Shown one piece after another: positions 3,335 to 61,311 of a stretch of 64,000 nucleotides of DNA. Position 1 is the first letter of the stretch; every line of letters begins with the position of its first letter. Origin of the DNA: Nitrospirota bacterium. Lineage in GTDB: Bacteria > Nitrospirota > Nitrospiria > JACQBW01. The stretch is taken from contig JACOTA010000013.1 of the NCBI GenBank assembly GCA_016178585.1, positions 3,183 through 67,182 of the forward strand. The letters run 5' to 3'. A model generated the notes under the pieces. The model did no database searches. It saw nothing but the letters and a program-made list of their open reading frames with translations, and was not told the origin of the DNA. The position numbers and the translations under genes were made by a program.

Positions 3335-3350
3335 ATTTCTAATCCTTATT

Positions 3351-3439
3351 TATATTCAGGGGCCGGTGCGCCCCGCCTTCGGCGGATGCTCCGATGCCCC
3401 CCGAACCCCGCGTTCCGCACCGGCTTAGCCGGTTGCTTC
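3351..3439 (-). repeat. F1 structured intercistronic element, copy 1 (pgsA|plsY)
   Basis: Conserved ends TATTCAGGGGCC ... CCCCGAACCCCGCGTTCCGCACCGGCTTAGCCGGTTGCTTC. Confidence 0.8.
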
Positions 3440-3445
3440 CCTTAC

Positions 3446-5029: not shown

Positions 5030-5557
5030 CGAGAGAAAGCCAACCGGCTTGAGGCCTTTCTCACCCATCCTCGCCGATAAAATAAAATCAATCGCTTCGC
5101 GAACGCCTCCCAGACCTCCTGCTTTTTTGGTCACCCAGTCGCACTGATCTTTTACTTCATCAATTCCATTGGAAACGGAAAGAGAAAGGCCGACCCGTTT
5201 TATTACCGGCAAATCAATCAGATCGTCGCCAATATAGGCCATTTCATGATCTTTCAAGTGGTGCTTTTTTAAAATTTCTTCGTATTGTTTAATCTTATTT
5301 TCAACGCCCAGATAACATTCCTCGATCCCCAACTCTCTGGCTCTGATTTCAACCGCTTTTGACTTTCTCCCCGAGAGGATTCCGACTTTAATTCCCTGCT
5401 CCAAAAGAAGCCGGATGCCATGGCCGTCATGGATATGAAATACTTTAATCTCTTTTCCCTGATCGTCGTAATAAAGACGGCCGTCGGTCAAGACTCCGTC
5501 GACATCCATGAGGAAAAACTTGATTTGTCCGGCTTTTTCAATCAGTTCCCGTTTCAT
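5015..5557 (-). CDS. kdsC: KDO 8-phosphate phosphatase (HAD family)
   Basis: 180 aa. Motifs FLMDVDGVLTDG and GDDLIDLP. Adjacent to kdsD and kdsA. Confidence 0.85.
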   Translation of the reverse strand: MKRELIEKAGQIKFFLMDVDGVLTDGRLYYDDQGKEIKVFHIHDGHGIRLLLEQGIKVGILSGRKSKAVEIRARELGIEECYLGVENKIKQYEEILKKHHLKDHEMAYIGDDLIDLPVIKRVGLSLSVSNGIDEVKDQCDWVTKKAGGLGGVREAIDFILSARMGEKGLKPVGFLSPDRR

Positions 5558-6585: not shown

Positions 6586-9767
<3,182 letters not shown>

Positions 9768-11408: not shown

Positions 11409-11429
11409 TTCATTCCTTAAGCCTTATTT

Positions 11430-11516
11430 TATTCAGGGGCCCGTGCGGTTTCACTCCGTGAAATCCTCCGATGCCCCCGAACCCCGCGTTCCGCACCGAC
11501 TAAGCCGGTTGCTTCA
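11430..11516 (-). repeat. F1 element, copy 2 (lepA|lepB)
   Basis: Same conserved ends. Confidence 0.8.
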
Positions 11517-11529
11517 CTTCATTTCTTAC

Positions 11530-14727: not shown

Positions 14728-14729
14728 CT

Positions 14730-15644
14730 TTATTTCACTCCTGCCGGTACGGCCGTTCCAATTTTTGCGGCGGCAGCCGCTAATTTTTTCTTGGCATCCA
14801 GTTCGGCCAAAAACGCTTTGGCTTCGTCAGTAATAAATTCTCTAAATGCGAAACGGTCAGCGGGCCCTTCAGAATCTCTCATCTCCTGAAGACCTTCCAT
14901 GCTCTGCTTTCCGATTTCAAGAATGCAGGGGGTGTAAATCTGCACGTAAGTCGGACCGATGGTTCTCGCGATTAAAATCGCGTTTTTTAGAACCCTTTCG
15001 ACCAGATTCGGCTTGCTGACGGTTAAAATGGCGACATAGGCACAGCCCGATTCCCGCGCAATTTCCGGCATACGGACTTTGTTGAATTTTTTCCCCTGAG
15101 GCGCCATTTTCATGACAAACCCTTTCTGGGTCAACCCGCTTTCCTGCCCGCCGGTATTTGCATAAAGTTCATTGTCAAAACAGATGGTTGTGAATTTCTC
15201 CTGGCGGAACCACGATTGAAGGGTCATGTCCAAACCGATATCGACCGTCGCACCATCGCCCGCGAGAACAACCACATCTTTTTCTTTTTCAGGAAATCTG
15301 ACTTTAAGCGCCCTTTTTAAACCTGAGGCAACCGCGTTTTGATTTCCGAAGAGAGAATGAATATTATGAACCGCGACATGGGGAAATACGAGACTGGTAC
15401 ACCCTGTCGACCCGACCATTACGGTATCTTCAGGATTCGGGAGCGAGGCCAAAACATACCGAAAGGCAATTGACTCCGGGCAGCCCGCACAGAGGGAATG
15501 TTCCTCAATCAGTTCTTTTGCACTGCCGATATCTTTCCATCCGCGGTTTTCTTTTCCATAGGTTGCGTCGGCAACAAGCTCTCTATATTCAACCGGCATA
15601 ATATCTTCTAAATCTTTCGAAATCTTGATTTTATCTTTACCCAT
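14730..15644 (-). CDS. 2-oxoacid:ferredoxin oxidoreductase beta subunit (TPP-binding), operon 1
   Basis: Motif GDGATVDIG. Start reassigned to the internal MGKDKIKISKDL (15644) so that it no longer overlaps alpha by 56 nt. N-terminus parallels that of beta-2. Confidence 0.8.
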   Translation of the reverse strand: MGKDKIKISKDLEDIMPVEYRELVADATYGKENRGWKDIGSAKELIEEHSLCAGCPESIAFRYVLASLPNPEDTVMVGSTGCTSLVFPHVAVHNIHSLFGNQNAVASGLKRALKVRFPEKEKDVVVLAGDGATVDIGLDMTLQSWFRQEKFTTICFDNELYANTGGQESGLTQKGFVMKMAPQGKKFNKVRMPEIARESGCAYVAILTVSKPNLVERVLKNAILIARTIGPTYVQIYTPCILEIGKQSMEGLQEMRDSEGPADRFAFREFITDEAKAFLAELDAKKKLAAAAAKIGTAVPAGVK

Positions 15645-16842
15645 GGACAAGCTCCTTTTTCCTAAGATGGATTTGCTTTTTAATCTCTTCAACGATCACT
15701 TCAGGGGGCAGGGTCATTCCACCGGCAACGTGAGGGCCGGCAATCACGCGATCGTTCCGGTCAATCACCGATTTAATTTCTCTCGCCATCCAGCCGGCCA
15801 CGTTAAACTCGGGCACAAAAATGAGTTTGGCATTCTTTGTCGCCCGACGGATTTCCTCGGTGGGGAACGGACGAATGGTTTTAATTTTAACCAGTCCGAC
15901 TTTAATTCCCTCTTCGTTCAATAAACGAATCGCTTCCCGTCCTTGAGCAACCGCCGTTCCTGAAGAAACAATCAGAATGTCGGCATCGGTGTTTTCTTCT
16001 TCAATCAAGCTTCCTCCCAGGTAACGGAGCGAATATTTTCTCGACCGTTCAATGGCAGCCTTAATTTCCTGCTGCCAGCTTGCGTGGGTCGCGTAGCTGA
16101 TATAATTGCTCTTCATCACGAAGGGGTCTCTCATCATCCGGACAGGCGGAGTCTCCATATCCATACAGGGAACGGGAGAACGATAAGGGTCATAATGGGG
16201 AATACAGATGTCGGCGCCGGTTAAGGAAACCATCTCTTTGGTATGGCTGACAAAGAAACCATCGATACAAACCGCAATGGGAAGATGAACATCCGGCTGT
16301 TCAGCCACAATAAATCCTTTCAGGAGCATATCAAACAATTCCTGGGCGGTCTCAGCGTGCCAGATGAGCATTCCGGTGTCTAATAAAAATGCCATCTCCA
16401 GAGTATCCGGCTGAATATTCAAAGGTGAGTTGACACCGCGAACCATCACGTTAATCATAATGGGAAGCCTTGACCCTGCCCACATCGGAAAGTTTTCAAA
16501 CGCTCTTAACGTGCCGGGGCCTGACGTCGTGGTAAAAACCCTTGCGCCTCCAAAAGCGGCGCCGGCGCATTCACCCATCACGGCAAATTCGTTTTCACCT
16601 CTGAAATAATCCCCGACATACCCTTCTGTCCATAACTCCCCGATTAAAGCTGAAGCTTCACTCTGAGGGGTAATAGGATAAGCCACGGAGATGTCAACAC
16701 TGGCTCTCCTGATCGCCTCTTTTACCACTTCGCTCCCCGTTAAGAAAAATTCCTGCCTGGGAGCTTCGAAAAACATATATTCTGGTTGAACAAACTTTTG
16801 TCCCTTCTTATTTAACGTTCCAATCAGATTATTCCCACCCAT
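15637..16842 (-). CDS. 2-oxoacid:ferredoxin oxidoreductase alpha subunit, operon 1
   Basis: 401 aa. Pyruvate-flavodoxin/ferredoxin oxidoreductase domains. Paralogous to 35144-36400. Confidence 0.8.
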   Translation of the reverse strand: MGGNNLIGTLNKKGQKFVQPEYMFFEAPRQEFFLTGSEVVKEAIRRASVDISVAYPITPQSEASALIGELWTEGYVGDYFRGENEFAVMGECAGAAFGGARVFTTTSGPGTLRAFENFPMWAGSRLPIMINVMVRGVNSPLNIQPDTLEMAFLLDTGMLIWHAETAQELFDMLLKGFIVAEQPDVHLPIAVCIDGFFVSHTKEMVSLTGADICIPHYDPYRSPVPCMDMETPPVRMMRDPFVMKSNYISYATHASWQQEIKAAIERSRKYSLRYLGGSLIEEENTDADILIVSSGTAVAQGREAIRLLNEEGIKVGLVKIKTIRPFPTEEIRRATKNAKLIFVPEFNVAGWMAREIKSVIDRNDRVIAGPHVAGGMTLPPEVIVEEIKKQIHLRKKELVHG

Positions 16843-20527: not shown

Positions 20528-20534
20528 TCTATTT

Positions 20535-20642
20535 TATTCAGGGGCCTGTGCCACAAAGCTTGCTCGCGAGCGTTCCCGCAGCGAAGCTATGTTTTCATGC
20601 CCCCGAACCCCGCGTTCCGCAACGGCAAAGCCGGTTGCTTCA
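20535..20642 (-). repeat. F1 element, copy 3 (HDAC-like|VOC)
   Basis: Same conserved ends with a longer variable hairpin. Confidence 0.8.
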
Positions 20643-20648
20643 GCACTC

Positions 20649-22495: not shown

Positions 22496-22632
22496 CCAAG
22501 ACCAGCGATAGACTTCGCACCCACTTATTAATCATGTCATTGCGAGCACCGAAGGGTGCGTGGCAATCTTATCGTAAAGTCTTGAGATTGCTTCACTTTG
22601 TTCGCAATGACAGCTTTCTAACTCTGTTCTTG
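22496..22632 (-). repeat. 137-bp element, copy A (inverted relative to B and C)
   Basis: Exact reverse complement of 24706-24842. Overlaps the ABC-F stop and last 4 codons. Confidence 0.9.
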
Positions 22633-24528
22633 TTCTTCTATGACTTGAAAAAATTTTTCTTTCTCCCGATAAAGTTCGGGATCGGCCAGCATCGCGGTTA
22701 ATTCCTCAATCCGTTTGTTCTTCTGGTCCAAAACCTTTTCCAGCTCTGCCATCTGGTTTTTTTTGGAATGGTTTTTTTGAAACCGATTATTTCTTAATTC
22801 GGCTTCCAGCCGTTTCTCTTCTTTGGTTTTTCGGGAAGACCGGTTCGCGTTGTCGCCGGTTTTAAGCATCGCCCCCGGTTCTCTTATTCCGGGCGAAGCC
22901 TCGCCCACGCCATTTTGACCGGCGGCCTGAAGTTCTTTTTTGTGGAGGTAATAATCATAATCTCCAACAAAGACCTCCACCTTTCCATTAGAAACTTCTA
23001 TGATTTTGTTCGCGACGGCCCGGATCAGGTGCCGATCATGGGTAATAAGGCAATAAGTTCCTGAATATTCTTTTAAGGATTCTTCAAGGACATTCATCGA
23101 TTGAATGTCAAGATGATTGGTTGGCTCATCCAAAAGCAAAAAGTTAGCAGGTTTCACCAGCATTTTGGCTAAAGCCAAACGGCTTTTTTCACCACCGCTT
23201 AAAACGGAAACTTTTTTGAAAACATCATCGCCAGTAAATAAAAACGATCCTAAAATCCCCCGCAAAAATGACACCGGTTCCATCGGGGCCACCGTGAGTA
23301 TTTCTTCCAAAATTTGGTTTTTTGGGTTTAAAAGTTCCAGCTGATGCTGGGCATAATAAGCGGTCTGGACATGGTGGCCTAACACCCGCTCTCCTTTTTG
23401 AAACGGCGTCGCCCCGGCCAAAAGCTTTAAAAGCGTCGATTTTCCCGCGCCGTTTGGACCCACAAATGCCACTTTGTCTCCTCGTTGAAGCGTTAAATTA
23501 AGACAGGGATAAATAACATTTTGGTCATACCGCTTTTCAATGTCTTTTAATTCAATGACCACTTCTCCCGACCGAATCGGTTGAGGAAATTTAAATCTCA
23601 CCTTCTTTCGTTCAGAGGCAAGCTCGATCTTGTCCATTTTTTCAAGCATTTTAACCCGGCTTTGAACCTGGCTTGCCTTACTTGCCTTTGCGCGAAACCG
23701 CTCTATAAATTTTTCAGTATCCTCTATCTTTTTTTGCTGGTTTTGATAGGCCGAAAGAAGGATCTCCTTGGCCAGCGCCTTTGCCTTTTCATACTGGTCG
23801 TAATTTCCGGTATATTCGGTGAGTTTTTTTTGATCGGCCTCAACGACTTTTGTCACAAGATTGTTCATGAAATTCCGGTCATGGGAGATTAACACGATCG
23901 AACCCTCATATTTCCTTAGGAAACCTTCAAGCCAGAGGACCGATTCCAGATCCAAATGGTTGGTCGGTTCGTCCAAAAGAAGCAGATCAGGGCCCGAAAG
24001 CAAAAGTTTAGCCAGGGCCAGCCGCATCAGCCACCCTCCGCTGAATTCCTCGGTCTTTCGATTTAAATCTCGTTCTTTAAAACTTAAACCAAATAAAATC
24101 TTCTTCGCTTCCGTCTCTAAATTGTAGCCCCCCATATTTTCAAACCTGGTTTGAAGCTCGCCATAATATTGAATTAATTTTTCAAGCTCGTCAGGGTTCG
24201 TTGTTTCTGAAATTTCTGTTTCTAAAACTTTAAGGTGGTGCTCCAAATTTTGTGCATCGCTCGAAACCGTTAACAACTCTTCCAGGACGGTTTTTCCCTT
24301 GAAATAAGTGATGTCCTGGGGAAGATATCCAATGACCGCTTTTTTGTTTCTAACGATGGTCCCGGAGTCAGGCGGTATCATCTCGGCAATCATCAGCATT
24401 AAGGTAGACTTGCCTGCTCCGTTAGGACCAATTAAAGCAATTTTATCCTGCGGCCCTATCCGGAAAGAAATATCGGCAAAAAGGGTTCTACTACCAAAAC
24501 TTTTACAAATATTATTAAGTGAAATCAA
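22618..24528 (-). CDS. ABC-F family ATPase (Uup-like, two NBDs plus C-terminal coiled coil)
   Basis: Two Walker A motifs GPNGAGKST and two ABC signatures ([24 protein letters not shown]). Charged coiled-coil tail. The last four codons and the stop lie inside a 137-bp repeat. Confidence 0.85.
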
Positions 24529-24705
24529 TTACGTACTCCATTTTTTTCCGCTGTTTATCAGATATCCCGTCCTTTTAAAAATCACCTTTTCTGCGAAAAG
24601 GCAGGCAAATTATCTTTTTCGTTAACAGGGTCCTTCTTAAACATCATGATTTTAATAAATGGTATTCTTTTTTGTTAAGCGACGGTTTATGACATGTATC
24701 AAGCC

Positions 24706-24842
24706 CAAGAACAGAGTTAGAAAGCTGTCATTGCGAACAAAGTGAAGCAATCTCAAGACTTTACGATAAGATTGCCACGCACCCTTCGGTGCTCGCAATG
24801 ACATGATTAATAAGTGGGTGCGAAGTCTATCGCTGGTCTTGG
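24706..24842 (+). repeat. 137-bp element, copy B
   Basis: Identical to RC of copy A. Nested hairpins (GTCATTGCGA...TCGCAATGAC; GCAATCT...AGATTGC; cUUCGg). Confidence 0.9.
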
Positions 24843-29651: not shown

Positions 29652-29725
29652 TGCGCCTGGAGGGAATTGAACCCCCGACCTACAGATTCGGAATCTGCCA
29701 CTCTATCCAACTGAGCTACAGGCGC
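29652..29725 (-). tRNA. tRNA-Arg (anticodon CCG)
   Basis: Manual cloverleaf: 7-bp acceptor GCGCCTG/CAGGCGC, D arm, anticodon stem GCAGA/TCTGT with loop TTCCGAA, T loop TTCAATT, discriminator A. No encoded CCA. Confidence 0.85.
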
Positions 29726-29843
29726 ATTCAAGAAAAGTCATTTTAACAAAACTAATCCAGAAACTCTAATACCTTCAAAAACAATAAATCAAAACCTTAT
29801 CGACATTGCGGAACCATGTCGAGAGCAAGCTTGGTGACTCGCA

Positions 29844-29862
29844 CCAACTGAGCTACAGGCGC
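29844..29862 (-). other. tRNA-Arg 5' fragment (positions 1-19) within a diverged tandem copy of the tRNA upstream region
   Basis: CCAACTGAGCTACAGGCGC is identical to 29707-29725. About 78 bp of upstream flank is also duplicated at roughly 80% identity. Confidence 0.7.
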
Positions 29863-29958
29863 ATTATAGAAAAGTCTATTTTAACAGAACGAATCGAAAA
29901 ACTCTAATGCCCTTAAAAACAATAAATAAAAACCTTTTTAAAAAGTATTATAAAGGAT

Positions 29959-31167
29959 TTATTTGGGTTGGACAACCGCTTTGCTTCTCTGGCTTTTGAT
30001 TAAAAAGACGATGGCCATGATAAAGGCCAGACCCATAGTCAGCCCCGCGAAAATATAGGGGGTGTCGATTCCGTATCGGTCATAAACAAATCCGCCAGAC
30101 ATTGGACCCAATATTCGGGCCAGACTTCCCATCGCTTGCGAAACGCCCATTGTCGCTCCCACAAAATGAGGATCCGTATGTTGTGAAATCAAGCTCGTAA
30201 TTGAAGGATTGTTGATTCCCAGACCAAATGAAAGAACAACCAGTACAACAAGAAGATAATAAAGGTTGGGCGCGAAAGGGATCAAGATAAGCCCTAAAAT
30301 CATCATAAAAGTTCCGGCGACCACCAACCTTTTCTCGCCAAATTTTTTAACCAGATGACCGATTAGCCCCCCTTGCATAATCGCCATTAAAATTCCAATG
30401 AAGCCAAAAACATATCCCGTTTCGACCGAGCTGAAATGATATTTTTGTTCCGCGAAAAGGGCAAAAGTAGCTTCCAGGGTCGAAAAGGAAAAGGTGATGA
30501 TAAACATTAAGAAAACAAGAATGCCTAAAAGAGGAAATGAAAAAGTCTTTTTAATACTCTCGAGACTAAGACTCCTTTTCTCTCCAATCATTTCGGGTTT
30601 AAGGGTTTCCGGCAGGCTAAAAAGAGCAAAAAAGAAGTTGATGCCGCAAATAGCCGATGCTAAAAACGCCGGAATTCGGTAACCAAAGTGACTGAAATAC
30701 CCTCCAAACAGCGGTCCTAGAACAAATCCCAGACCAAATGCCGCTCCGATAAGACCCATCCCTTTCGCCCGGTTTGCCGCCGTCGTCGAATCGGAAATAT
30801 AAGCCTGGCTGGTCGATATATTGGCCGCAAAAATTCCCGCAAAAAACCTCGATATAAATAAAACCGCGAGAGAATCGGCAAGACCAAAAATAAGATAGGA
30901 AATGGAGGATCCAACCAGGCTCATTAGAATAATCGGTCTTCTCCCTTTCAGATCTGAAATGCGCCCCCAGATGGGCGAAAAAATTAACTGCATGAAAGAA
31001 TAGGAAGACATTAAAAGGCCTACCGTTAGCCCGGTCGCGCCATATTTTTCGGCATAAAAGGGTAATACGGGGATGACAATCCCGAATCCGAGGAGATCAA
31101 TAAAAACAGTAACGAAAATAATAACGAGTGGAGATTTTTTCAAGCGCCCGATTCCTTCCCTAACCAT
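29959..31167 (-). CDS. MFS transporter
   Basis: 402 aa with 12 predicted TM segments and an MFS loop motif (GRISDLKGRRP). Confidence 0.8.
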   Translation of the reverse strand: MVREGIGRLKKSPLVIIFVTVFIDLLGFGIVIPVLPFYAEKYGATGLTVGLLMSSYSFMQLIFSPIWGRISDLKGRRPIILMSLVGSSISYLIFGLADSLAVLFISRFFAGIFAANISTSQAYISDSTTAANRAKGMGLIGAAFGLGFVLGPLFGGYFSHFGYRIPAFLASAICGINFFFALFSLPETLKPEMIGEKRSLSLESIKKTFSFPLLGILVFLMFIITFSFSTLEATFALFAEQKYHFSSVETGYVFGFIGILMAIMQGGLIGHLVKKFGEKRLVVAGTFMMILGLILIPFAPNLYYLLVVLVVLSFGLGINNPSITSLISQHTDPHFVGATMGVSQAMGSLARILGPMSGGFVYDRYGIDTPYIFAGLTMGLAFIMAIVFLIKSQRSKAVVQPK

Positions 31168-31286
31168 TTTTTTATTGAGGTGAGCGATACATCCACAAAC
31201 GGTTAAATATAAGGTAATTCATGGGTAGAGTAAAGAAAATTGTGGAAACACCTTGATCTGATTTTGCGCCTGCCTTATGATGTAAG

Positions 31287-31396
31287 TGAAGCATCTGGCT
31301 CTGCCAGTGACGGACTTGGGAATGGTCGTAGTGAGACCGAGCGTAACGCGGGGTTCGGGGGCATTGAGAGTGAAGTGCTCGAAGGCCTCCTGAATA
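31287..31396 (+). repeat. F1 element, copy 4 (inverted on the chromosome; precedes the + strand radical SAM gene)
   Basis: Reverse complement of the consensus. Contains one 32-bp CGGTCT..GTC sub-module. Confidence 0.8.
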
Positions 31397-31402
31397 TAAT
31401 AA

Positions 31403-32275
31403 GTGAAGCAAAATCCTAACCTTTCTAAAGCCTTTTCCGACCATCGTCGCAGTTACGATCGTAACCGGCATGTTTATCCGGTTATTTCAAGGCGGTCAAA
31501 AGGGCTGTCGATAGGGATTAATCTTAACCCCGACAAGGTCTGTAACTTCGATTGTGTTTACTGCCAGGTTGACCGACGGGCTCCAGGTCATCCACCCCTG
31601 GTCGAAATTCCTCTCATCCTCCATGAGCTTAAGGAAATCCTTGAATCGGTCATGTCGGGTCAATTTTACCTGGACCCCCGGTTTAAGGATATTCCGCGTG
31701 ATCAGCTTATTTTAAGGGATATTGCTTTTTCCGGAGACGGAGAACCTTCCACCTTTCCGCTATTTTTAGAGTTAACCCAGGGAGTGATTTCGCTGAAAAA
31801 TGAATTAGGTCTTTTCGAACTCAAGGTCGTCGTGATTACCAATGCTTCAGGTCTGGGCCGTCTGGAGGTTCAAAAAGCCCTTGACTTATTGGATAATCAT
31901 CACGGGGAAATTTGGGCCAAACTTGACGCAGGGACGGAGGCTTACTTTCATAAAATTTGCCGGACACCGTTAGGTTTTCAAAAAATCTTGAATAATATTC
32001 AGTTTGCCGCCCAAAAAAGACCTATTGTGATTCAATCCTGTTTTATGAAAATCGATGGGAAAGGACCATCAGAAGATGAATTAGAGGCTTACGCAGAACA
32101 ATTCCGGCGAATTTTGGAGAACCATGGCAAGTTAAAGCTGATCCAGATCTACACCGTTGCGCGAGTTCCTGCCGAACCCTATGTCACCCCCCTGGAGGAC
32201 CATGAGCTTGATGAAATTGTCGAACGAATAAGATTAAAAATAAATGTGCCGTTGGAAGCTTTTTACCACGCTTAA
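31403..32275 (+). CDS. Radical SAM protein
   Basis: CNFDCVYC (CxxxCxxC) near the N-terminus. GTG start immediately after a repeat element; the exact start is uncertain. Confidence 0.6.
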   Translation: MKQNPNLSKAFSDHRRSYDRNRHVYPVISRRSKGLSIGINLNPDKVCNFDCVYCQVDRRAPGHPPLVEIPLILHELKEILESVMSGQFYLDPRFKDIPRDQLILRDIAFSGDGEPSTFPLFLELTQGVISLKNELGLFELKVVVITNASGLGRLEVQKALDLLDNHHGEIWAKLDAGTEAYFHKICRTPLGFQKILNNIQFAAQKRPIVIQSCFMKIDGKGPSEDELEAYAEQFRRILENHGKLKLIQIYTVARVPAEPYVTPLEDHELDEIVERIRLKINVPLEAFYHA

Positions 32276-32758: not shown

Positions 32759-32886
32759 GTCCTGAACGTGGAGATGAGGTCAGTTGCAAGGCCGCAGCTT
32801 TGAGGGCGACGCAGGCGTACTTTGTCGGTACGTCGAGGAGACCGAAAGGCGAGAACGCAGCAAATGGCCTCGTATCAGCGTTCAGG
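32759..32886 (+). ncRNA. F3 structured element, copy b (fills a convergent intergenic gap)
   Basis: Same architecture, with compensatory changes in the closing stem. Confidence 0.45.
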
Positions 32887-33472: not shown

Positions 33473-34174
33473 CTAGGCGGTAACCTTTTGTTTCGCGGGT
33501 TTAGCCACCTGCCACCCCTGCTCAATCGCATAATGATGAGCAAAGGTAATCGCATCCATATTTTTTTGAATCAGCAGGGCTTTTTTGGCGAACTTTTTTT
33601 CAATCACGTTATCTAACGATGCGGTCCCGCCGGAAACCACAAATCCTTTACCCAAAAACCTGTCCTTGACAGATTGCTCAAGGGACACAAGATCAGGCAT
33701 TCCCATAATTCCTGCCATGGCGCCGCACATCGCCATGTTGGTCGCTAATTCTGTTCCCGCGACTTCACTGGCAATCTTGGTGGCCGGCAGATAATATACC
33801 TTGGCCTCTTTTTCCTTTAATTCTCTTTCTTCATCCTCAATAAGCGGAAGAGGCGTATCGTTGTTAATGAGAACGATTCCGCCCTGTTTAAGGCCTGAAT
33901 AAAAAGGCATCGTGTAAGACTTTCCATGGGTGATCACCTGAGAGTGGAAGATCATTAAAGCGTTCGGAAAAATGATTTCTCCAATTTCATAAATACGATC
34001 CTCGGAAATCCGCACATAACTTTCAACCGGAGCCATCCGTTTTTCAGACCCGAAAAACGGAACAAGCGTGCTTTCTCCGCCACTGACAATGACCGCATTG
34101 CTGAGAATGTGAGAAGCGGTCACCACACCCTGCCCGCCAATTCCAGCCATACGAATATTATATCGTTTCCTCAT
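33473..34174 (-). CDS. 2-oxoacid:ferredoxin oxidoreductase gamma subunit, operon 2
   Basis: 233 aa. Confidence 0.8.
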   Translation of the reverse strand: MRKRYNIRMAGIGGQGVVTASHILSNAVIVSGGESTLVPFFGSEKRMAPVESYVRISEDRIYEIGEIIFPNALMIFHSQVITHGKSYTMPFYSGLKQGGIVLINNDTPLPLIEDEERELKEKEAKVYYLPATKIASEVAGTELATNMAMCGAMAGIMGMPDLVSLEQSVKDRFLGKGFVVSGGTASLDNVIEKKFAKKALLIQKNMDAITFAHHYAIEQGWQVAKPAKQKVTA

Positions 34175-34209
34175 TAATTTATTCCTTCTATCTTATGGTT
34201 AAACCGAAT

Positions 34210-35082
34210 TCAGGAAGCGGCCGCCGTTTTTTTATTTTCCTTTTCGACGCGCGCTAAATATTCTTTCGCCTCATCGGAAATAATTTCCATAAATCCATAA
34301 CGATCTTTTTCAACTGCTCGCGCATCGTCCATGACCTTGGGTGTCGGAATCGCATATTCAATGTTGCAGGAGGTGTAAGCCTGAACATAGGTCGGCCCGA
34401 TCTCCCTGGCAATTAAAACAGCCTTCCGAATCACGCTGGCGATGCGGGTTGGGTTGGTTGGAGCCAGCCGCACGATGTAAGGAAGTCCGGCGGTTTTGGC
34501 AAGGCCAATAACATCCATTTTTTCAAACTTTTTACCAAAGGGAGCCATCTTAAGGACCATCCCTTTGGTGGTCATGCCGCTTTCCTGGCCGCCGGTGTTT
34601 CCATAAACCTCGTTATCCAACATGATCGTTGTAAATTTTTCTTTTCTAAACCAGGAATGCATCAGGGCGCTAAAGCCGATGTCGACCAGGCCGCCGTCGC
34701 CCGCCATGACAACGACATCTTTTGGCTGATTTTCATGGCGAATCGACAGACCCCTTTTTAAACCGGAGGCCACCGCATTGGTGTCGCCATAGTTTCCGTA
34801 AACGAAAGGAATATTAGCCTGAGAAAGAGCCAAACGTCCGCAGCCGGCAGTCCCGATGATAATCGTATGTTCCGGATTGGGGAGCCCCACCATGGTCAAC
34901 CGGATAAAGAGGGTCATGGCACATCCCGCGCACATCGGATGTTCCTCTAAAAGCTCTTTAAAGCTTCCCATTTCGGAAACTTTTACCTGACGGCCATAAG
35001 GGCCTCTTTCAACCAGGTCCACATATTCTTTTGGCATATAATGGGAAAAACCATCTGCTATTTTAACGGTATCTAATGACAT
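34210..35082 (-). CDS. 2-oxoacid:ferredoxin oxidoreductase beta subunit, operon 2
   Basis: 290 aa. Motif GDGGLVDIG. Confidence 0.8.
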   Translation of the reverse strand: MSLDTVKIADGFSHYMPKEYVDLVERGPYGRQVKVSEMGSFKELLEEHPMCAGCAMTLFIRLTMVGLPNPEHTIIIGTAGCGRLALSQANIPFVYGNYGDTNAVASGLKRGLSIRHENQPKDVVVMAGDGGLVDIGFSALMHSWFRKEKFTTIMLDNEVYGNTGGQESGMTTKGMVLKMAPFGKKFEKMDVIGLAKTAGLPYIVRLAPTNPTRIASVIRKAVLIAREIGPTYVQAYTSCNIEYAIPTPKVMDDARAVEKDRYGFMEIISDEAKEYLARVEKENKKTAAAS

Positions 35083-35143
35083 CTGTTCCCTTTCCTGTTT
35101 TTTCTTCTAAAGAAGAATTTAGTTTGGATTAACGATCTTGAAC

Positions 35144-36400
35144 CTAAAAGCGTTTACCGCCGGCCTGAGGGAAAATATAATCCAAAATCATCTCTGTGGG
35201 CATCGACATTCCACCAAAAACACGGGGACCATCGGCAATTTCCGCGTGAGTATGCCCGTATAAGGTATTTCGCACTTCTTTGGTATGCCATCCGACATAA
35301 TTAAACTCCGGAACAATAATTCTTTTGGCATGCTTGCAAGCTTCAATTAATTCAAGTCTCGGATATGGCCGGATCGATTTTATTTTCACAAGACCGATCT
35401 TCACGCCATGATCTTCTTCAGCCTGCCGAACGGCCTCCCTGGACTGGGAAACGGCGCTTCCGGAAGCGACAATCATAATATCGGAGCCGGGATTAACGAC
35501 TTCAACTGCGCTTCCCATATATTGGTTAATATACCGGCGGGACCTTTCATGAGCGGCAAAAACTTCCTGCTGCCAGGAAGCGTGCATATGGTAACTGATA
35601 AAATTTGATTTTTGAATCGGCGCATCTCTGGAGATACGGGCCGGAGGATTTTCGTTGTCCATACAAGGTGTCGCGGCACGATAAGGATCTCTCGGAGGAA
35701 GCTTGATATCTTTAGGAGGTAATTCAACATATCCGCGGGCATGGGTCACAAAGAATCCATCGACCGCGACGACAACAGGAATATTGACATCGACTTTTTC
35801 TGTAATCATAAACGCTTTCATGGTATAGTCGAAAAAGTCTTGCTGATTTTCGGCGTGGAAAAGAAGAACTCCGGTATTTAAAAGATAGGACAGTTCAACG
35901 TTGTCCGGCTGAATGGCAAGCGGCGCATTCACCACGCGACACATCACGAGAAGAACCAGAGGCATGCGTCCTCCGGGCCATGAGGCGATCACTTCAAGGC
36001 CCCTTAAAAGGCCAGGTCCGGCTGTCGCCGTCAGCGCACGCACACCGGAACGGGATGCCCCGGAAATCGCCGACATGACACCGTATTCTTCTTCACCTCT
36101 ATAATAATCCTTTAAATAACCTTCCGCATAAAGATATCCCACCTGTTGCATCGTTTCGCTCTGAGGCGTAATCGGGTAAGAAATGGCAATATCCACATTA
36201 GAACGGCGAATCGCCTCTTTGGCTGCCTCGCTGCCGGTGATAAAAACCCTTTCCCGGGGAGCTTCAAAGAACATATGTTCAGGGGTAACAACCCGTTGTA
36301 ACGAAGCCTCGCTTACTTTTTCTTTTTTTGGCGCCTCCGCTACGGATATGACGTCCCCTTGCGGGTTTGTTTTTACTTCTGTTTCTACTCCTTCAGACAC
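35144..36400 (-). CDS. 2-oxoacid:ferredoxin oxidoreductase alpha subunit, operon 2
   Basis: 418 aa. Confidence 0.8.
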   Translation of the reverse strand: MSEGVETEVKTNPQGDVISVAEAPKKEKVSEASLQRVVTPEHMFFEAPRERVFITGSEAAKEAIRRSNVDIAISYPITPQSETMQQVGYLYAEGYLKDYYRGEEEYGVMSAISGASRSGVRALTATAGPGLLRGLEVIASWPGGRMPLVLLVMCRVVNAPLAIQPDNVELSYLLNTGVLLFHAENQQDFFDYTMKAFMITEKVDVNIPVVVAVDGFFVTHARGYVELPPKDIKLPPRDPYRAATPCMDNENPPARISRDAPIQKSNFISYHMHASWQQEVFAAHERSRRYINQYMGSAVEVVNPGSDIMIVASGSAVSQSREAVRQAEEDHGVKIGLVKIKSIRPYPRLELIEACKHAKRIIVPEFNYVGWHTKEVRNTLYGHTHAEIADGPRVFGGMSMPTEMILDYIFPQAGGKRF

Positions 36401-41868: not shown

Positions 41869-41883
41869 TAAATCCTCCTATTT

Positions 41884-41962
41884 TATATTCAGGGGTCTTC
41901 GAGAAAAACACTCTCAATGCCCCCGAACCCCGCGTTACGCACTGGCAAAGCCAGTTGCTTCA
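41884..41962 (-). repeat. F1 element, copy 5 (FAD-oxidoreductase|gcvH)
   Basis: Same conserved ends. Confidence 0.8.
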
Positions 41963-41982
41963 CTTATTAGAATTGAATATGT

Positions 41983-53535: not shown

Positions 53536-53541
53536 CCATTC

Positions 53542-53616
53542 TATTCAGGGGCCTTCGCAAACGACGCTCAATGCCCCCGAACCCCGCGTTCCGCACTGGC
53601 AAAGCCAGTTGCTTCA
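53542..53616 (-). repeat. F1 element, copy 6a
   Basis: First unit of a tandem pair. Confidence 0.8.
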
Positions 53617-53623
53617 TCCATTC

Positions 53624-53794
53624 TATTCAGGGGCCTTCGCAAACGACACTCAATGCCCCCGAACCCCGCGTTCCACTCGGTCTAACTACGACCATTCCAA
53701 AGTCCGTCTCGGTCTAACTACGACCATTCCAAAGTCCGTCTCGGTCTAACGACGACCATTCCAAAGTCCGTCACTGGCAAAGCCAGTTGCTTCA
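53624..53794 (-). repeat. F1 element, copy 6b with three tandem 32-bp sub-modules (53678-53773)
   Basis: Second tandem unit. CGGTCTAACTACGACCATTCCAAAGTCCGTCT repeated three times. Confidence 0.8.
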
Positions 53795-54754
53795 CTGGAC
53801 TAAAAAGTCAAAACTTAGCTGTTCTTTTTTTAATAAGTTATGCGATATTCGATTAATCCCCTGCGCCGAAGTGGAATAGGGATATTCGAGCATCAGCGGA
53901 CGGCTCATTTTCGTTGCCCTCCATACCGAATCATCATATTCGACATAGCCTACATATTCTATCTGAATTCCAAAATATTTGGAACAGGAACTACGCATCG
54001 AAAAACCGAGCGCGATATCATCTTTTGACCGTACCTGGTTAACGATGATTTTAGGTTTGAAATTATAAATCTGTTCCTTTAATGTCCTTCCGACTTCAAA
54101 ATCGATTTTTTCCACCTGTTCGATTAAATCAAAAGGAGTTCGAATTCCCAGGTCATTTTTCTGGTCCATCGCCTGCGTAATAACGGCTTTAATCGCGGGA
54201 TCTTTGACAACTTTTTTAAACCGCCTGTAAAAAGAACTTTTGATAAACCGATAAACGTTTTCGATGGACGTCGGCTCCGGGAGGACCGTCAAAATTCCGA
54301 CATCCGAAATCAGAAAAAAATCCAAAATATTAAAAGAAGTTCCCGCCCCCAAATCAAGAATGATGTACTCAAAATCGAGTTCCTGAATCTGCCGGATAAG
54401 CTTCATTTTTTCGCGATATTTTGGATTCGCGATTTCCAAAAAATCCTGGGCCCCGCTGATTAGCGATAAATTGGGTATTTGCGTTTCGAGCAAAACTTCA
54501 TGGATGGACTTTACTTTTCCCCGTATAAAATCCGAAAGGGTGGCCCCTTTCACGGAAATTCCCAAACAGGTATGAAGATTGGCGCAGCCTAAATCCGCGT
54601 CAATTAAAATGACTTTTTTCCCTAATCGGGTGAGAGAAATCGCAAGGTTTCCGGATAAGAAGGTCTTTCCGGTTCCTCCCTTTCCTCCGCCAACGGCCCA
54701 GATTTCCCGGTTTTGCGCTTTTAATTTACCTTTAAGGATATCGACTGAAGACAT
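53792..54754 (-). CDS. MinD/ParA-family P-loop ATPase
   Basis: Deviant Walker A GGGKGGTGKT. 320 aa. Confidence 0.7.
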   Translation of the reverse strand: MSSVDILKGKLKAQNREIWAVGGGKGGTGKTFLSGNLAISLTRLGKKVILIDADLGCANLHTCLGISVKGATLSDFIRGKVKSIHEVLLETQIPNLSLISGAQDFLEIANPKYREKMKLIRQIQELDFEYIILDLGAGTSFNILDFFLISDVGILTVLPEPTSIENVYRFIKSSFYRRFKKVVKDPAIKAVITQAMDQKNDLGIRTPFDLIEQVEKIDFEVGRTLKEQIYNFKPKIIVNQVRSKDDIALGFSMRSSCSKYFGIQIEYVGYVEYDDSVWRATKMSRPLMLEYPYSTSAQGINRISHNLLKKEQLSFDFLVQ

Positions 54755-59924: not shown

Positions 59925-60209
59925 TTAAGCCGGGGAAGAATCTGACGACGGTTTGGGCACTTCTTTTTTGGCCGAATCGGGCGAAATTTTCAAAGGAGGA
60001 GAGGAGGATACCGCCGGTTGAGCGGCCGGAGCTGCCGCAACCGCTTTGGGCTGTTCAGGGGCCTTTGCTGTTGCAGATGGATCGACAATCTCTTCTTTAT
60101 AAACTTCGATAATGCTGTCTAATTTAATATTTTTGGCTTCAAGCGCTTTTTTGATATCAAGCAGTTTTGCATCGGTAACTTTTACAACAAAATTTATTTT
60201 TTTCGCCAT
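59925..60209 (-). CDS. Hypothetical protein (94 aa, low-complexity Pro/Ala/Ser tail)
   Basis: ORF with an AGGA RBS. Confidence 0.4.
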   Translation of the reverse strand: MAKKINFVVKVTDAKLLDIKKALEAKNIKLDSIIEVYKEEIVDPSATAKAPEQPKAVAAAPAAQPAVSSSPPLKISPDSAKKEVPKPSSDSSPA

Positions 60210-60231
60210 TCCTAAAATTCCTTTTCGATTA

Positions 60232-60359
60232 TATTCAGGGGCCCGTGCGGAGAAATGATTAAAACCATATGTCCGCTACGGGATCGCTCCCAAAGCAGGC
60301 TCGGAGGCTCCAAATGCCCCCGAACCCCGCGTTACGGACTGGCAAAGCCAAGTGCTTCA
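60232..60359 (-). repeat. F1 element, copy 7 (upstream of the 94-aa gene)
   Basis: Same conserved ends. TATAAT lies 3 nt upstream in transcript sense. Confidence 0.8.
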
Positions 60360-60624
60360 CTTTATTATACCCCTTTTGCTTTCAAGTCTAGCATGGAAAC
60401 TTATCAAAAAAAGCCTCTTTAAGTCAAGTTAAATCAATGACTTATTGTAATCCTTCAGTGAAACGGGGCGATACACACGAAAGGGCCTGGTGTGACCTGA
60501 ACGGAGACTTCGGCGAAGTTTGTTGATCCCTCCATAATGTAAAGTCCAGAAATGAGGATAACTTCGTCGGCGTCGGAGAGACGGTCATTCCAGGTCCTTG
60601 AAAACCCTTGACTGAATGGTTCCC

Positions 60625-61167: not shown

Positions 61168-61200
61168 GAGACGGATTGTGGAATGGTCGTAGTTAGACCG
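61168..61200 (-). repeat. Solo 32-bp sub-module (CGGTCTAACTACGACCATTCCACAATCCGTCT)
   Basis: Occurs outside any F1 element, downstream of pgpA. Confidence 0.6.
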
Positions 61201-61311
61201 AAAAAGTGGTTTTTTTGTCATTCCCGTGCAAACGGGAATCCAGTTTTTTCAAGTCGTTATGTTCTCCCTAGATTCCCGCTTTCGCGGGAATGACGAATTT
61301 TTACAAGACCA

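Follow-up and report, generated by a model that had tools for sequence, protein, structure and literature searches.

A dispersed, structured non-coding repeat of Nitrospiria probably makes up the 5' leader of a radical SAM gene

The window analysed here, i.e., the whole 64-kb stretch of DNA, contains a divergent pair of genes encoding an MFS transporter (29959..31167, minus strand; Pfam PF07690) and a radical SAM protein of 290 aa (31403..32275, plus strand; Pfam PF04055), and the same gene order occurs at the related loci L030, L032, and L033. The radical SAM gene has homologues of 283-292 aa (coverage 97-100%) and begins with a GTG codon that is not preceded by a Shine-Dalgarno sequence. Between the two genes lies a repeat copy, c8 (31286..31402, plus strand), which was delimited by direct reading and by a covariance-model match of 76.2 bits (E = 7.5e-16) and is the sole plus-strand copy in the window. 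On the plus strand, c8 comprises a head, GTGAAGCA (31286-31293), a P1 hairpin (about 31293-31309), a nested 32-nt module (31309-31340), the invariant core AACGCGGGGTTCGGGGGCAT (31345-31364), the 5' arm of a helix P2 (31354-31362), a P3 hairpin (31365-31384), the 3' arm of P2 with one extra T (31385-31394), and an A/T-rich tail that extends to 31402 and includes TATAAT (31395..31400) 2 nt before the GTG. As the original prediction had it, the order on the plus strand is element and then gene, with c8 ending in ...GGCCTCCTGAATATAATAA and the GTG at 31403 following directly. The first base of c8 is G31286 and not, as given there, 31287. The first 8 nt of the radical SAM gene (GTGAAGCA) are identical to the head of c8, and an 11-nt direct repeat, TAAGTGAAGCA, is found around the element (31283-31293 and 31400-31410).

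Upstream of c8, a promoter scan called a sigma-70-type promoter of the radical SAM gene (31253..31281, plus strand) with the -35 box TTGATC (31253-31258), a 17-nt spacer, and the -10 box TATGAT (31276-31281). Direct reading places this TATGAT 4 nt before the first base of c8, in agreement with the prediction. The motif CTTGA(T/A)CT ... TAT(G/C)AT could be aligned in the element-free orthologous MFS/radical-SAM spacers of L030, L032, and L033; both hexamers are thus conserved in four genomes. In the three relatives, exactly 6 nt separate the -10 box from the ATG or GTG start codon, which implies that the radical SAM gene is leaderless in these organisms. As the same -10 box is present where the element is absent, the box predates c8 and belongs to the host gene: judging from these alignments, TTGATC-17-TATGAT is the ancestral promoter of the host gene and not part of the repeat. 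Insertion of c8 took place downstream of this -10 box and ahead of the GTG, so that c8 probably makes up the whole 5' leader, albeit as an accident of insertion. Given the usual spacing from -10 box to start site, we predict that transcription starts at about 31287-31289, inside GUGAAGCA, in which case c8 would be essentially the entire 5' UTR. The original prediction that the element is the exact 5' leader of its gene, with transcription starting near the head, is therefore supported at c8 by a conserved promoter, but the idea that the -10 box is a companion of the element is not.

The second copy with a conspicuous box is c7 (60226..60360, minus strand; covariance-model match 81.1 bits; fold z = -3.4), which carries a long P3 insertion and lies upstream of a 94-aa gene (59925..60209, minus strand) whose ATG start follows an AGGA ribosome-binding site. 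A perfect TATAAT (60364..60369, minus strand) was indeed found ahead of c7, separated by 3 nt from G60360, the first base of the head. However, the TAGACT (60385..60390, minus strand) claimed to precede it at 16 bp is separated from it by 15 bp (spacer 60384-60370), and the promoter scan made no call. Neither the empty c7 site of L036 nor that of L037 contains the TATAAT, and we rejected TAGACT/TATAAT as a sigma-70 promoter on the grounds of its spacing, the missing scan call, and its absence in these two relatives. At the other end of c7, a second TATAAT (60228-60233) follows CCCCTGAA, giving a 6-nt flanking direct repeat. A candidate for the promoter of the 94-aa gene is a conserved motif further upstream (60398..60427, minus strand; -35 TTGACT 60427-60422, 18-nt spacer ending in TGA, -10 TAAGTT 60403-60398). 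The pattern TTGACT-N18-TGnTA(A/G)nnT is shared by the window, L036, and L037, and its -10 box ends 37 nt upstream of c7. As this -10 box is weak by consensus, the candidate is put forward on the basis of its conservation.

Hexamers of the -10 type (at least 5/6 matches, with A at position 2 and T at position 6) end 2-6 nt before 2.1% of window positions, and before 4 of 17 independent element 5' ends (c7, c8, L015_a, and L036_a), which is well above chance. Such a box was present at both of the copies without an upstream cistron and at 2 of the 15 with one (Fisher p ~0.04). The prediction that boxes occur only where an upstream cistron is absent thus describes the window, but fails outside it, since L015_a and L036_a have co-oriented upstream cistrons. 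The left flanks show only a loose (T)AAA preference.

With the covariance model, which missed none of the window copies, we counted nine copies in the 64 kb, lying 7-20 kb apart amid housekeeping genes, and 24 over all compared loci. Related Nitrospiria metagenome-assembled genomes (MAGs) carry further copies. The census is small because it rests on ~250 kb of clade sequence. Elements measure about 76-180 nt, with approximate end coordinates. On the minus strand of the window, c1 (3347..3441) lies between a CDP-alcohol phosphatidyltransferase gene and plsY and is flanked on both sides by TATAAATA (8/8 identical). Copy c2 (11424..11517) lies between lepA and lepB, and its flanks form an imperfect duplication of ~25-30 nt of the lepB ribosome-binding/start region (alignment score 14 vs. 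a background of 6.1 +/- 1.4). Copy c3 (20529..20643) separates a deacetylase gene from a glyoxalase-family gene whose TTG start, without a Shine-Dalgarno sequence, follows the tail after 7 nt, and c4 (41880..41963; fold z = -4.5) is located upstream of gcvH. A tandem array (53536..53795) of c5a (53618-53795, with three 32-nt modules) and c5b (53536-53617) lies between a ParA-like and a DnaJ-HTH gene; the L036 counterparts of these two genes overlap by ATGA, and the head of c5a (G-TGA-AGCA) contains the TGA stop of the upstream gene. A solo 32-nt module was found at 61170..61201 (plus strand).

A scan of GTDB genomes gave real matches in two Nitrospiria MAGs only, and a scan of JGI metagenomes gave two contigs only, near-duplicates of L005 and L015. 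A phage origin was dismissed, as the sole IMG/VR match was 32 nt long and arose by chance. Rfam 15, including its ribozymes, returned nothing at the gathering threshold, and two element-rich stretches gave no Rfam match at E <= 10. In a full-text literature search, the core sequence returned no description, only human TERC coincidences. The repeat family is thus apparently undescribed so far and, as far as the searches show, limited to a group of Nitrospirota MAGs of the class Nitrospiria.

At 15 of 16 non-orthologous loci, the element is in sense orientation to the adjacent gene (binomial p ~5e-4), and at the sense loci a start codon, a ribosome-binding site, or the 5' end of a tRNA lies within a few bases of it. 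The exception is a copy in L033 (8507-8585) that is antisense to both neighbours. The claim that the inverted copy c8 still faces its gene is therefore correct and can be generalised. It is trivial, however, in a divergent region, where either orientation faces some gene, so that the non-trivial fact is the tail abutting the start codon. GC skew is negative across the entire window, which places it in a single replichore; the inverted c8 thus follows gene direction rather than the replichore. Replication-strand bias was accordingly rejected as the cause of orientation, with c8, a single copy, going against it. The landing spots lie before ribosome-binding sites, between overlapping genes, and against tRNA 5' ends, and one copy (L036_b) sits inside rbfA, at codons 3-4. 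No common function links the downstream genes (plsY, lepB, glyoxalase-family, gcvH, DnaJ-HTH, radical SAM, FBPase, rpmG, secE, nusG, and tRNA), and four of them have no Shine-Dalgarno sequence (those at c3, c5b, c8, and L036_a).

Orthologous sites were empty in close relatives at all four comparable window loci: the c8 site in L030, L032, and L033, the c4 site in L030 (23-nt spacer) and L033 (47-nt spacer), the c5 site in L036, and the c7 site in L036 and L037. Conversely, relatives carry copies that the window lacks. In L036, one copy separates a haem-oxygenase-like gene from the FBPase gene; the corresponding window spacer is short, free of the element, and contains a GGAGAG ribosome-binding site. 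L033 has one between an MFS gene and a tRNA, with no copy at the window counterpart. The secE-nusG spacer contains decayed or truncated copies in L038 and L042 and an intact copy in L005. Small size, lack of coding potential, multiple copies, and presence/absence polymorphism all apply to the family. Empty sites in relatives together with copies of the relatives elsewhere show that the element is an insertion, and it is probably mobile. Counting against mobility, no transposase, integrase, or reverse transcriptase was linked to the element and no movement was observed. At L036_a, the element appears to have taken the place of the native ribosome-binding-site spacer instead of merely splitting it, which fits recombination better than cut-and-paste transposition.

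The flanks were compared for signs of the insertion mechanism. Flanks of the same copy resembled each other slightly more than flanks of different copies (permutation p = 0.03), a weak signal carried by c1, c7, L036_a, and L005_ab, and flanking repeats varied without a fixed length (c1 8/8, c7 6/6, c8 5/6, c2 ~25 nt). A long target duplication was rejected as a general rule, since c2 alone stands out. A target resembling the element's own tail was likewise rejected: it was significant in 1 of 17 flanks (L036_a), which also drove the combined Fisher p of 0.015. Terminal inverted repeats of the classical MITE type are lacking, as the first 30 nt compared with the reverse complement of the last 30 nt scored like shuffles in 6 of 7 copies, with c1 alone reaching p = 0.02.

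These flanks bear on the possibility that the element acts purely as DNA, for example by binding a nucleoid or recombination protein or by serving as an attC-like recombination site, and that its RNA plays no part. The core could bind a protein, the hairpins could form in single-stranded DNA, and the flanks of L036_a, c1, and c8 look like a tail-head junction, as would result from recombination with a circular or tandem donor. On inspection by hand, however, the ends contain neither the R'' (RYYYAAC) nor the R' (GTTRRRY) core sequence of integron attC sites, the copies lie 7-20 kb apart rather than in cassette arrays, the core is not palindromic, and a tail-like target is confined to the one significant flank. 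The sense orientation and the G-U pairs described below also favour a constraint on the transcribed strand, and we give this possibility a very slim chance.

In sense-strand order, the element consists of a 5' P1 hairpin, an invariant single-stranded RAACGCGGGG, P2, P3, and an unpaired A/U-rich tail. P2 is a long-range G+C-rich helix in which UUCGGGGGC pairs with GCCCCUGAA, thereby closing P3, a variable hairpin that is able to expand and falls into a type A and a type B subfamily, the latter with GGAUUUCAC...GUGAAAC. Two helices are supported by covariation: 96% of cells pair and six pairs show compensatory changes, in an alignment that had been fitted to the model, and controls with slid partners collapsed. 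A full swap was seen for P1 in L020 and for P3 between c1 and c2, and the alternation of GU and GC in P2 is compatible with the sense strand only. Fold z-scores ranged from -1.5 to -4.5 in six copies and were weakest for c8 (-0.2). The 32-nt module occurs zero, one, or three times per copy (once in c8 and three times in c5a) as well as solo, and tandem arrays of the whole element exist. HDV-like and tRNA-like folds were tried by hand and discarded, because their pairings vary across copies. The 20-nt core is invariant across genomes of 44-51% GC. The centre is more conserved than the ends, which would be odd for a purely selfish DNA transposon and points to a trans-acting partner or a role at the RNA level.

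Such features could mean that the element is a dedicated cis-acting leader or intercistronic RNA, recruited to many genes, that steers processing, stability, or translation, perhaps with the invariant AACGCGGGGUUCGGGGGC as the basis of an RNase site or of a platform to which proteins or ribosomes bind. Consistent with this are the covarying helices with their strand-specific G-U pairs, the core that does not change with genomic GC content, the nearly constant sense placement directly before start codons, and the four downstream genes without a Shine-Dalgarno sequence. In addition, the copy proximal to tRNA-Trp has been kept in three genomes, which could mean selection for function, while the distal tandem copy decays. 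However, the downstream genes are functionally unrelated and their orthologues in relatives do without the element, copies decay in place and occur in tandem or nested, one copy is antisense, and another has disrupted rbfA at its 5' end. Covarying structure, as in a riboswitch or cis-leader, is therefore present, whereas a coherent gene set and orthologous conservation are lacking, and we consider a dedicated regulatory RNA unlikely. The same observations divide the original argument that the element is no passive spacer: covarying helices and an invariant core do indicate constraint, but presence/absence polymorphism, decayed and tandem copies, and the rbfA copy mark it as an insertion that these genes can dispense with and not as their dedicated leader.

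Among small dispersed bacterial repeats, the family behaves, by analogy, most like the mycobacterial MIRUs, which Supply and colleagues are said to have reported in 1997 within operons and in the direction of transcription. Likewise, we found insertion at or beside start codons, within operons, and in sense (c4, c5, c7, and c8; 15 of 16 loci), including the -10/start junction at c8, the ATGA overlap at c5, and the first codons of rbfA at L036_b. MIRUs are short, apparently mobile, located at start codons or between cistrons, and often tandem, and downstream expression survives their presence (PMC12548453). Unlike MIRUs, which carry a short ORF with a -4 nt overlap, the Nitrospiria family lacks a conserved ORF and is instead marked by covarying helices and an invariant 20-nt core; it shares no sequence similarity with MIRUs and belongs to another phylum.

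A MIRU-type coupling cassette would read a short ORF from the GTG of the head to the downstream start and hand on ribosomes there. The head does read GTGA, in c5a the TGA stop of the upstream gene falls within the head, the tail has stop codons in two frames before the start, and in c4 and c8 the ORF of the head ends at the TGA of the tail. In these two copies, GTG...TGA would be translated into MKQLALPVRNAGFGG, but a small protein or uORF was ruled out on 23 copies, over which the ends of the head-frame ORF are scattered (with five codons only in c2, L036_a, and L040_a). Several heads have GGG, CTG, GCG, or AGG in place of a start codon, changes in P3 length break the frame, and the core is conserved as nucleotides without synonymous variation. 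The GTGA overlap with an upstream stop, i.e., -4 coupling, is restricted to c5a. Ribosome coupling is therefore the faintest of the possibilities that we weighed.

In most copies, the tail hexamer TAnAAW (TATAAT, TATAAA, TAGAAT, or TACAAT) comes close to a -10 consensus, and the element might thus be a portable promoter whose tail serves as the -10 box of the downstream gene, as in some Correia elements (PMC10969869). Position argues against this. In c8 and c5b, 2 nt separate the end of the hexamer from the start codon, and at tRNA-Trp it adjoins the mature 5' end (0 nt). Transcripts beginning 6-8 nt further on would start within the gene, and in c4 they would lack the Shine-Dalgarno sequence. 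The TATAAT of c8, at 2 nt from the GTG, is too close for a transcript starting at the GTG. In L040, L042, and L005, TAnAAW directly adjoins the mature 5' end of tRNA-Trp, so it cannot be a general promoter. Inspection of c4 and c5b by hand revealed no -35 box at 16-18 nt but only TTGAG, 22-24 nt away, and the promoter scan called no promoter within c8 or c7. We regard a portable promoter as highly improbable.

Correia elements end in 26-bp terminal inverted repeats, show a TA duplication, and are found in either orientation, in contrast to the Nitrospiria family, which lacks inverted repeats, is nearly always in sense, and has a tail hexamer that is not positioned as a promoter. Otherwise there is some resemblance, in that Correia elements of ~100-200 bp occur in many copies, mostly immediately upstream of genes, are co-transcribed and RNA-processed, bear -10-like sequences at their ends, and can separate a promoter from its gene (PMC10969869).

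Taken together, we think it fairly probable that c8 is a copy of a small, non-coding, structured repeat family that inserts at the 5' boundaries of genes, mostly in sense. Transcription of the host gene or operon would include the element, as a 5' UTR or as a segment between cistrons. P2 and P3 would lock up the G+C-rich body, while the A/U-rich tail just ahead of the start codon would stay unstructured, so that translation could begin without a Shine-Dalgarno sequence. This sequestration of the body, with the tail staying open, may be the reason why insertions are tolerated at tight junctions. The A/T-rich TAnAAW at both ends might represent an A/T-rich target or a short target duplication, which would account for the -10-like boxes at the 5' end. 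For c8, the target was the -10/start region of the radical SAM promoter, which would now fire straight into the element.

A more elaborate version, which we hold to be quite unlikely, pictures a mobile, self-insulating RNA cassette that is co-transcribed and then cut precisely at its 3' end under the direction of its invariant core and helices, with either a new self-cleaving fold or a recruited host RNase doing the cutting. Such a cut would restore the native 5' end of the downstream sequence, whether that end belongs to a leaderless GUG or AUG mRNA, to a mature tRNA, or to a ribosome-binding site. Insertions at a -10/leaderless start, in overlapping genes, or at tRNA-Trp would consequently not kill these genes, and four downstream genes would need no Shine-Dalgarno sequence.

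Still less probable, and in our view very unlikely, is a SINE-like retroelement or ribozyme-bearing repeat that is co-transcribed with host genes, excised from the RNA at defined ends through self-cleavage or RNase P/E, and recopied into A/T-rich sites by a reverse transcriptase whose gene lies elsewhere. This would match the sense-only arrangement within transcription units, the A-rich 3' tail, the A/T-rich flanks with repeats of variable length (c1 8, c7 6, and c2 ~25 nt), the tail that stops exactly at the RNase P site in three genomes, and the choice of junctions where repair at the RNA level alone would seem to make insertion harmless. However, there was no Rfam ribozyme match even at E <= 10, no reverse transcriptase was seen in the window, and the heads of c1, c2, and c4, inspected by hand, have no conserved HDV-like P1. 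Moreover, RNA cleavage could not repair the rbfA insertion, and the duplications are statistically insecure.

Returning to the structured repeat family that we favour, further known systems share single traits with it. To our knowledge, BOX elements show no strict orientation or proximity to start codons. The pneumococcal BOX elements are modular intergenic repeats with a variable number of internal modules, strong predicted RNA structure, and mutual insertion (PMC10969869); the 32-nt module, present zero, one, or three times or solo, is reminiscent of this arrangement, with no sequence relationship. ERIC/IRU and Rickettsia palindromic elements are small, structured, and transcribed with their neighbours, and some lie in-frame within genes (PMC10969869), as the L036 rbfA copy also lies within a gene. 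They are imperfect palindromes, whereas the Nitrospiria family has an asymmetric head-core-tail layout with a single-stranded invariant segment. With PATEs and REP/RAYT systems, the family has in common the lack of inverted terminal repeats, subterminal hairpins, strand specificity, and the lack of a clear target duplication. PATEs of the IS200/IS605 type and REP/RAYT systems carry similar hairpins at both ends, depend on one Y1 transposase, and use a fixed left target of 4-5 nt. In contrast, the two ends of the Nitrospiria element differ, P1 is unrelated in sequence to P2/P3, the left flank shows no fixed target beyond its loose (T)AAA, and the inverted c8 tracks gene direction within one replichore.

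If this description holds, the repeats represent an uncatalogued family in a poorly studied phylum, and their invariant 20-nt core implies a trans-acting partner. They insert where genes are most sensitive, at promoter/start junctions, gene overlaps, and tRNA 5' ends, yet the reading frames stay intact and of normal length, which makes them a natural test of the 5' context that bacterial translation and tRNA processing tolerate. In particular, c8 shows the outcome when an apparently leaderless gene gains a structured leader of 115 nt, and it teaches that a promoter box beside a repeat may be the host's own and older than the insertion. The element also misleads gene callers: the rbfA call runs through a copy, and spurious ORFs are called within others. 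Masking or modelling of the element is therefore advisable in the annotation of these MAGs. It breaks short-read assemblies as well, and Logan assemblies of element-bearing DNA were observed to end within the element.

The reported copy of the element, c8, occupies positions 31286-31402 (+) and reads GTGAAGCA-TCTGGCTCTGCCAGT-[GACGGACTTGGGAATGGTCGTAGTGAGACCGA]-GCGTAACGCGGGGTTCGGGGGCAT-TGAGAGTGAAGTGCTCGAAG-GCCTCCTGAATATAATAA; directly 3' of it, the GTG at 31403 opens a 290-aa radical SAM reading frame. The original prediction had noted a TATGAT hexamer 4 nt before the first base of this copy, and reading of positions 31276-31281 bore this out, with 4 nt separating the hexamer from the first G. 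A promoter scan of the window called TTGATC-17-TATGAT at the same flank. Alignment with the orthologous MFS/radical-SAM spacers of related genomes gave ...AGAGTAAAG...CTTGA(T/A)CT-N17-TAT(G/C)AT-N6-ATG/GTG. The distance from the -10 box to the start codon is exactly 6 nt in the relatives' loci L030, L032 and L033 (GAGACA-GTG, TAAAAG-ATG and GAACGA-ATG, respectively), which would be the geometry of a leaderless mRNA. In the window, c8 occupies the gap between this ancestral -10 box and the GTG. From this arrangement, transcription should start within GUGA of the element head, and the whole 5' UTR of the radical SAM gene, about 115 nt, should consist of c8. The proposal that the element forms the exact 5' leader of this gene is therefore probably right, given the conserved promoter; however, the box is the ancestral promoter of the host gene and does not travel with the element.

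At c7 (60226-60360, minus strand), the predicted TATAAT does lie 3 nt before the element (60369-60364 in minus sense, head G at 60360), but the TAGACT at 60390-60385 is spaced from it by 15 bp and not by 16 bp. No -35 box was found at a usable distance from this TATAAT, and the hexamer is missing at both empty orthologous sites (L036, L037). The conserved sequence shared by the window, L036 and L037 is TTGACT-N18-(TGn)TAAGTT/TAGTTT/TAACAT, whose window instance (60427-60398) has a -10 box ending 37 nt upstream of the head. A second exact TATAAT lies at the other side of c7 (60233-60228).

Across the family, 4 of 17 independent 5' flanks carry a good -10-like hexamer ending 2-6 nt before the head, against 2.1% expected. 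That such a box occurs only where an upstream cistron is lacking is contradicted by two of these four flanks (copies L015_a and L036_a), each with a co-oriented gene upstream. These two argue that the enrichment probably belongs to the A/T-rich junctions of the element (TAnAAW at both ends) and not to a need for a promoter. The tail hexamer was rejected as a general promoter on account of its position: only 2 nt lie between it and the start codon in c8 and c5b, and in three genomes it immediately adjoins the mature tRNA-Trp.

Exactly nine copies were detected in the window by repeat finding, by motif searches and with R1, a covariance model derived from 15 copies. Besides c7, the minus strand carries c1 (3347-3441), c2 (11424-11517), c3 (20529-20643), c4 (41880-41963) and the tandem c5b (53536-53617) and c5a (53618-53795). 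The element consists of a head, (A)AGTGAAGCA, a P1 hairpin (ACYGGC-TTW-GCCRGT), a single-stranded segment (GCGKAACGCGGGG), a P2 stem in which TTCGGGGGC pairs with GCCCCTGAA to close a variable P3 hairpin (20 to >90 nt), and an A/T-rich 3' tail, TAnAAW. Eight of the nine window copies share the same core 20-mer, AACGCGGGGTTCGGGGGCAT. Between P1 and this core, c8 carries one nested copy (31309-31340) and c5a three tandem copies (53677-53772) of a 32-nt module, GACGGACTTTGGAATGGTCGTAGTTAGACCGA, which has a small hairpin (GGTC...GACC) and is absent from all fetched relatives. The module behaves like a mini-repeat in its own right and also stands alone downstream of pgpA (61170-61201), where it is adjoined by a REP-like palindrome pair, GTCATTCCCGTGCAAACGGGAATC and GATTCCCGCTTTCGCGGGAATGAC (61218-61300).

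Standard pairs fill 96% of the P1 and P2 cells in the 24-copy alignment, with six pairs changed on both sides, figures to be read in light of the fitting of that alignment to the model; when the 3' partners were slid by 1-3 columns as a control, pairing fell to 24-52%. P1 is entirely different in L020 (CCCCTTTTAGGGG), and P3 is wholly different between c1 (CCGCC-GAAG-GGCGG) and c2, L040 and L036 (TTTCAC-GRAG-GTGAAA). One P2 pair switches between G-U (17 copies) and G-C (6 copies), which fits the sense strand only. Single-sequence fold z-scores were -4.5 for c4, -3.5 for c2, -3.4 for c7, -3.2 for c3, -2.4 for c5b and -1.5 for c1. With its nested module and an additional T in P2, c8 scored only -0.2, which makes the reported copy the most weakly folded in the family.

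With orthologous positions taken once, 16 loci were counted, and at 15 of them the element reads in the same direction as the gene that follows it. Thirteen of these lie in a same-strand run, between two genes, or a gene and a tRNA, of like orientation, and two, c7 and c8, in a divergent spacer. The downstream genes are unrelated, comprising plsY, lepB, gcvH, rbfA, rpmG, secE, nusG and tRNA-Trp as well as genes for a glyoxalase-family protein, DnaJ-HTH, a 94-aa protein, radical SAM, FBPase and a DegT-type aminotransferase. GC skew is negative across the whole window, which therefore lies in one replichore; thus the orientation of c8 follows its gene and not the replication strand. This supports, on the strength of one copy, the prediction that the inverted copy still faces its gene. 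Native spacers are tiny (-4 to about 47 nt), so any surviving insertion must end near a start codon, and proximity in itself is no evidence of function. The preference for tiny spacers over longer intergenic regions points to a target close to the 5' ends of genes.

The radical SAM protein of the window has an identical counterpart in a Nitrospirae/Nitrospirota MAG. Scanning GTDB, with each species represented by one genome, for exact matches to the core returned 24 stretches, of which three hold a complete element (L005 and L015 from one Nitrospiria MAG, L020 from another); the remainder are chance matches in G+C-rich genomes. A scan of JGI metagenomes gave two contigs only, duplicates of L005 and L015, and the single viral match was rejected as a 32-nt chance match. 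Syntenic loci fetched via protein homologues added two copies in L036 (GCA_054638995.1), one in L033 (GCA_016194305.1), others in L040 and L042 and a decayed one in L038, bringing the total to 24 distinct copies. Rfam 15 gave no match to the element at gathering scores or at E <= 10, and a full-text literature search with the core sequence found no relevant paper. Three independent short-read assemblies break inside the element, which is therefore under-represented in short contigs; this fits a high genomic copy number. Logan contigs of the window organism (L027-L029, L038-L039) stop inside or beside it, L027 beginning at model position 28.

All four window sites comparable by synteny are empty elsewhere. 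The c8 site is empty in L030 (78% protein identity), L032 (61%) and L033/L034 (57%), and the c4 site is a pre-gcvH spacer of 23 nt in L030 and 47 nt in L033. At the c5 site, the ParA-like and DnaJ-HTH genes overlap by ATGA in L036, and the window has a 256-nt gap with two elements; at the c7 site, the 5' UTR is uninterrupted in both L036 and L037 and about 35 nt long. Reciprocally, L036 carries a copy between a haem-oxygenase-like gene and the FBPase gene, where the window has a short element-free spacer with a GGAGAG ribosome-binding site, and L033 carries one, lacking in the window, between an MFS gene and a tRNA. The latter copy (8507-8585, + strand; also in L034 and L035) is the only antisense one: it lies between the stop of the minus-strand MFS gene and the minus-strand tRNA, antisense to both, and its head is somewhat degenerate (GTGAGGA).

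A second L036 copy lies inside the first codons of rbfA (2503-2595 within 2478-2948). The ATG at 2491, probably the native start, no longer lies in frame, and the deposited call uses an upstream TTG in frame through the entire element, adding about 36 residues; RbfA would thus be either a fusion product or inactivated. In the secE-nusG spacer, L005 has an intact copy, L042 (GCA_041480245.1) a stump made up of head and P1, L038 a decayed copy and L040 (GCA_041498655.1) none. Together, the empty sites, reciprocal copies, decay and assembly breaks, with the sequence subfamilies, tandem arrays and nesting present in the family, suggest that the element is a repeat with a history of spread in these lineages. 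Copies are concentrated in the tuf-rpmG-tRNA-Trp-secE-nusG cluster, a hot spot (L005 150-1290; L040 190-375; L042 270-425 and 784-831; L038 289-367); in L005, six copies within 1.2 kb fill four successive spacers. A tandem pair precedes tRNA-Trp in three genomes, the proximal copy intact and ending exactly at the tRNA 5' end, the distal one decaying.

The junctions would be compatible with an A/T-rich target and a short or variable duplication, or with recombination at junction-like sequences. Terminal inverted repeats of the element were not found, and the two flanks of one copy resemble each other only slightly more than do flanks taken from different copies (p = 0.03). Flank repeats occur at c1 (TATAAATA, 8/8), c7 (TATAAT, 6/6), c8 (TATGAT/TATAAT) and L036_b (GTATA), and c2 shows a significant imperfect duplication of about 25 nt spanning the lepB ribosome-binding and start region. 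An 11-nt repeat, TAAGTGAAGCA, bounds c8, its second copy supplying the first radical SAM codons (N-terminus V-K-Q-N-P in the window vs V-T-Q-N-P in L030). At L036_a a complete tail precedes the head, an arrangement that a position-weight-matrix test found in only 1 of 17 flanks.

These comparisons show an insertion-polymorphic, sense-biased, structured repeat at gene 5' boundaries. The element is probably co-transcribed with its host gene; P2 and P3 would then tie up the G+C-rich body, and the A/U-rich tail ahead of the start codon would stay unpaired. This arrangement may explain intact, normal-length reading frames after the element without a Shine-Dalgarno sequence. Genes without one follow c3, c5b, c8 and L036_a, the native GGAGAG being lost at the last. 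The invariant centre hints at an RNA-level function, e.g., as a processing site or protein platform; so does the tRNA-Trp locus, where three genomes have kept the copy at the tRNA 5' end while its distal tandem partner is decaying. Since the downstream genes are unrelated and orthologous sites are empty, a riboswitch is excluded.

The family is a small dispersed bacterial repeat without Rfam counterpart. Closest in behaviour are MIRUs, described as mobile and inserting at start codons with little disturbance of target-gene expression (PMC12548453); unlike them, the family has no MIRU-type ORF. In c4 and c8 the frame is open from the head GTG to the tail TGA. A coding or uORF role was rejected, as head-frame stops are scattered across 23 copies and several heads have no start codon, so MIRU-type coupling was not found. 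Correia elements share upstream-of-gene positions and -10-like ends, as well as co-transcription (proposed for the present family) and RNase processing (possible in it), and BOX elements share modularity and nesting (PMC10969869). MIRUs, Correia and BOX elements have no sequence homology to the family, which differs from MITEs in having no inverted repeats.

The window holds further repeats. A 142-nt repeat occurs three times at 99% identity (22496-22637, -; 24701-24842, +; 60622-60760, +), two inverted copies bracketing an ABC-F ATPase gene (22618-24528). It contains a stem, GTCATTGCGA...TCGCAATGAC, and the string AAAGTGAAGCAATC, which accounts for three of nine GTGAAGCA matches; because its copies are near-identical, the repeat may have spread recently or be a composite element. 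An unrelated conserved non-coding segment of ~120 nt (4910-5030 and 32766-32886, +; 81% identity) has no Rfam match, and its differences look hairpin-preserving (CGTAC...GTACG). With an orthologous copy after the DUF1841 gene in a relative (L030 11354-11469), it may be a small RNA or cis element. The segment 29652-29936 holds a tRNA gene (29652-29725, -) and, after it, a duplication whose period is about 137 nt and which includes a partial copy of the tRNA 3' half (29700-29744 vs 29837-29881; 29740-29798 vs 29878-29936). Finally, paralogous gene blocks at 14410-16107 and 33857-35605 (71-73% DNA identity) look like two 2-oxoacid:ferredoxin oxidoreductase clusters, judged by position in syntenic loci.
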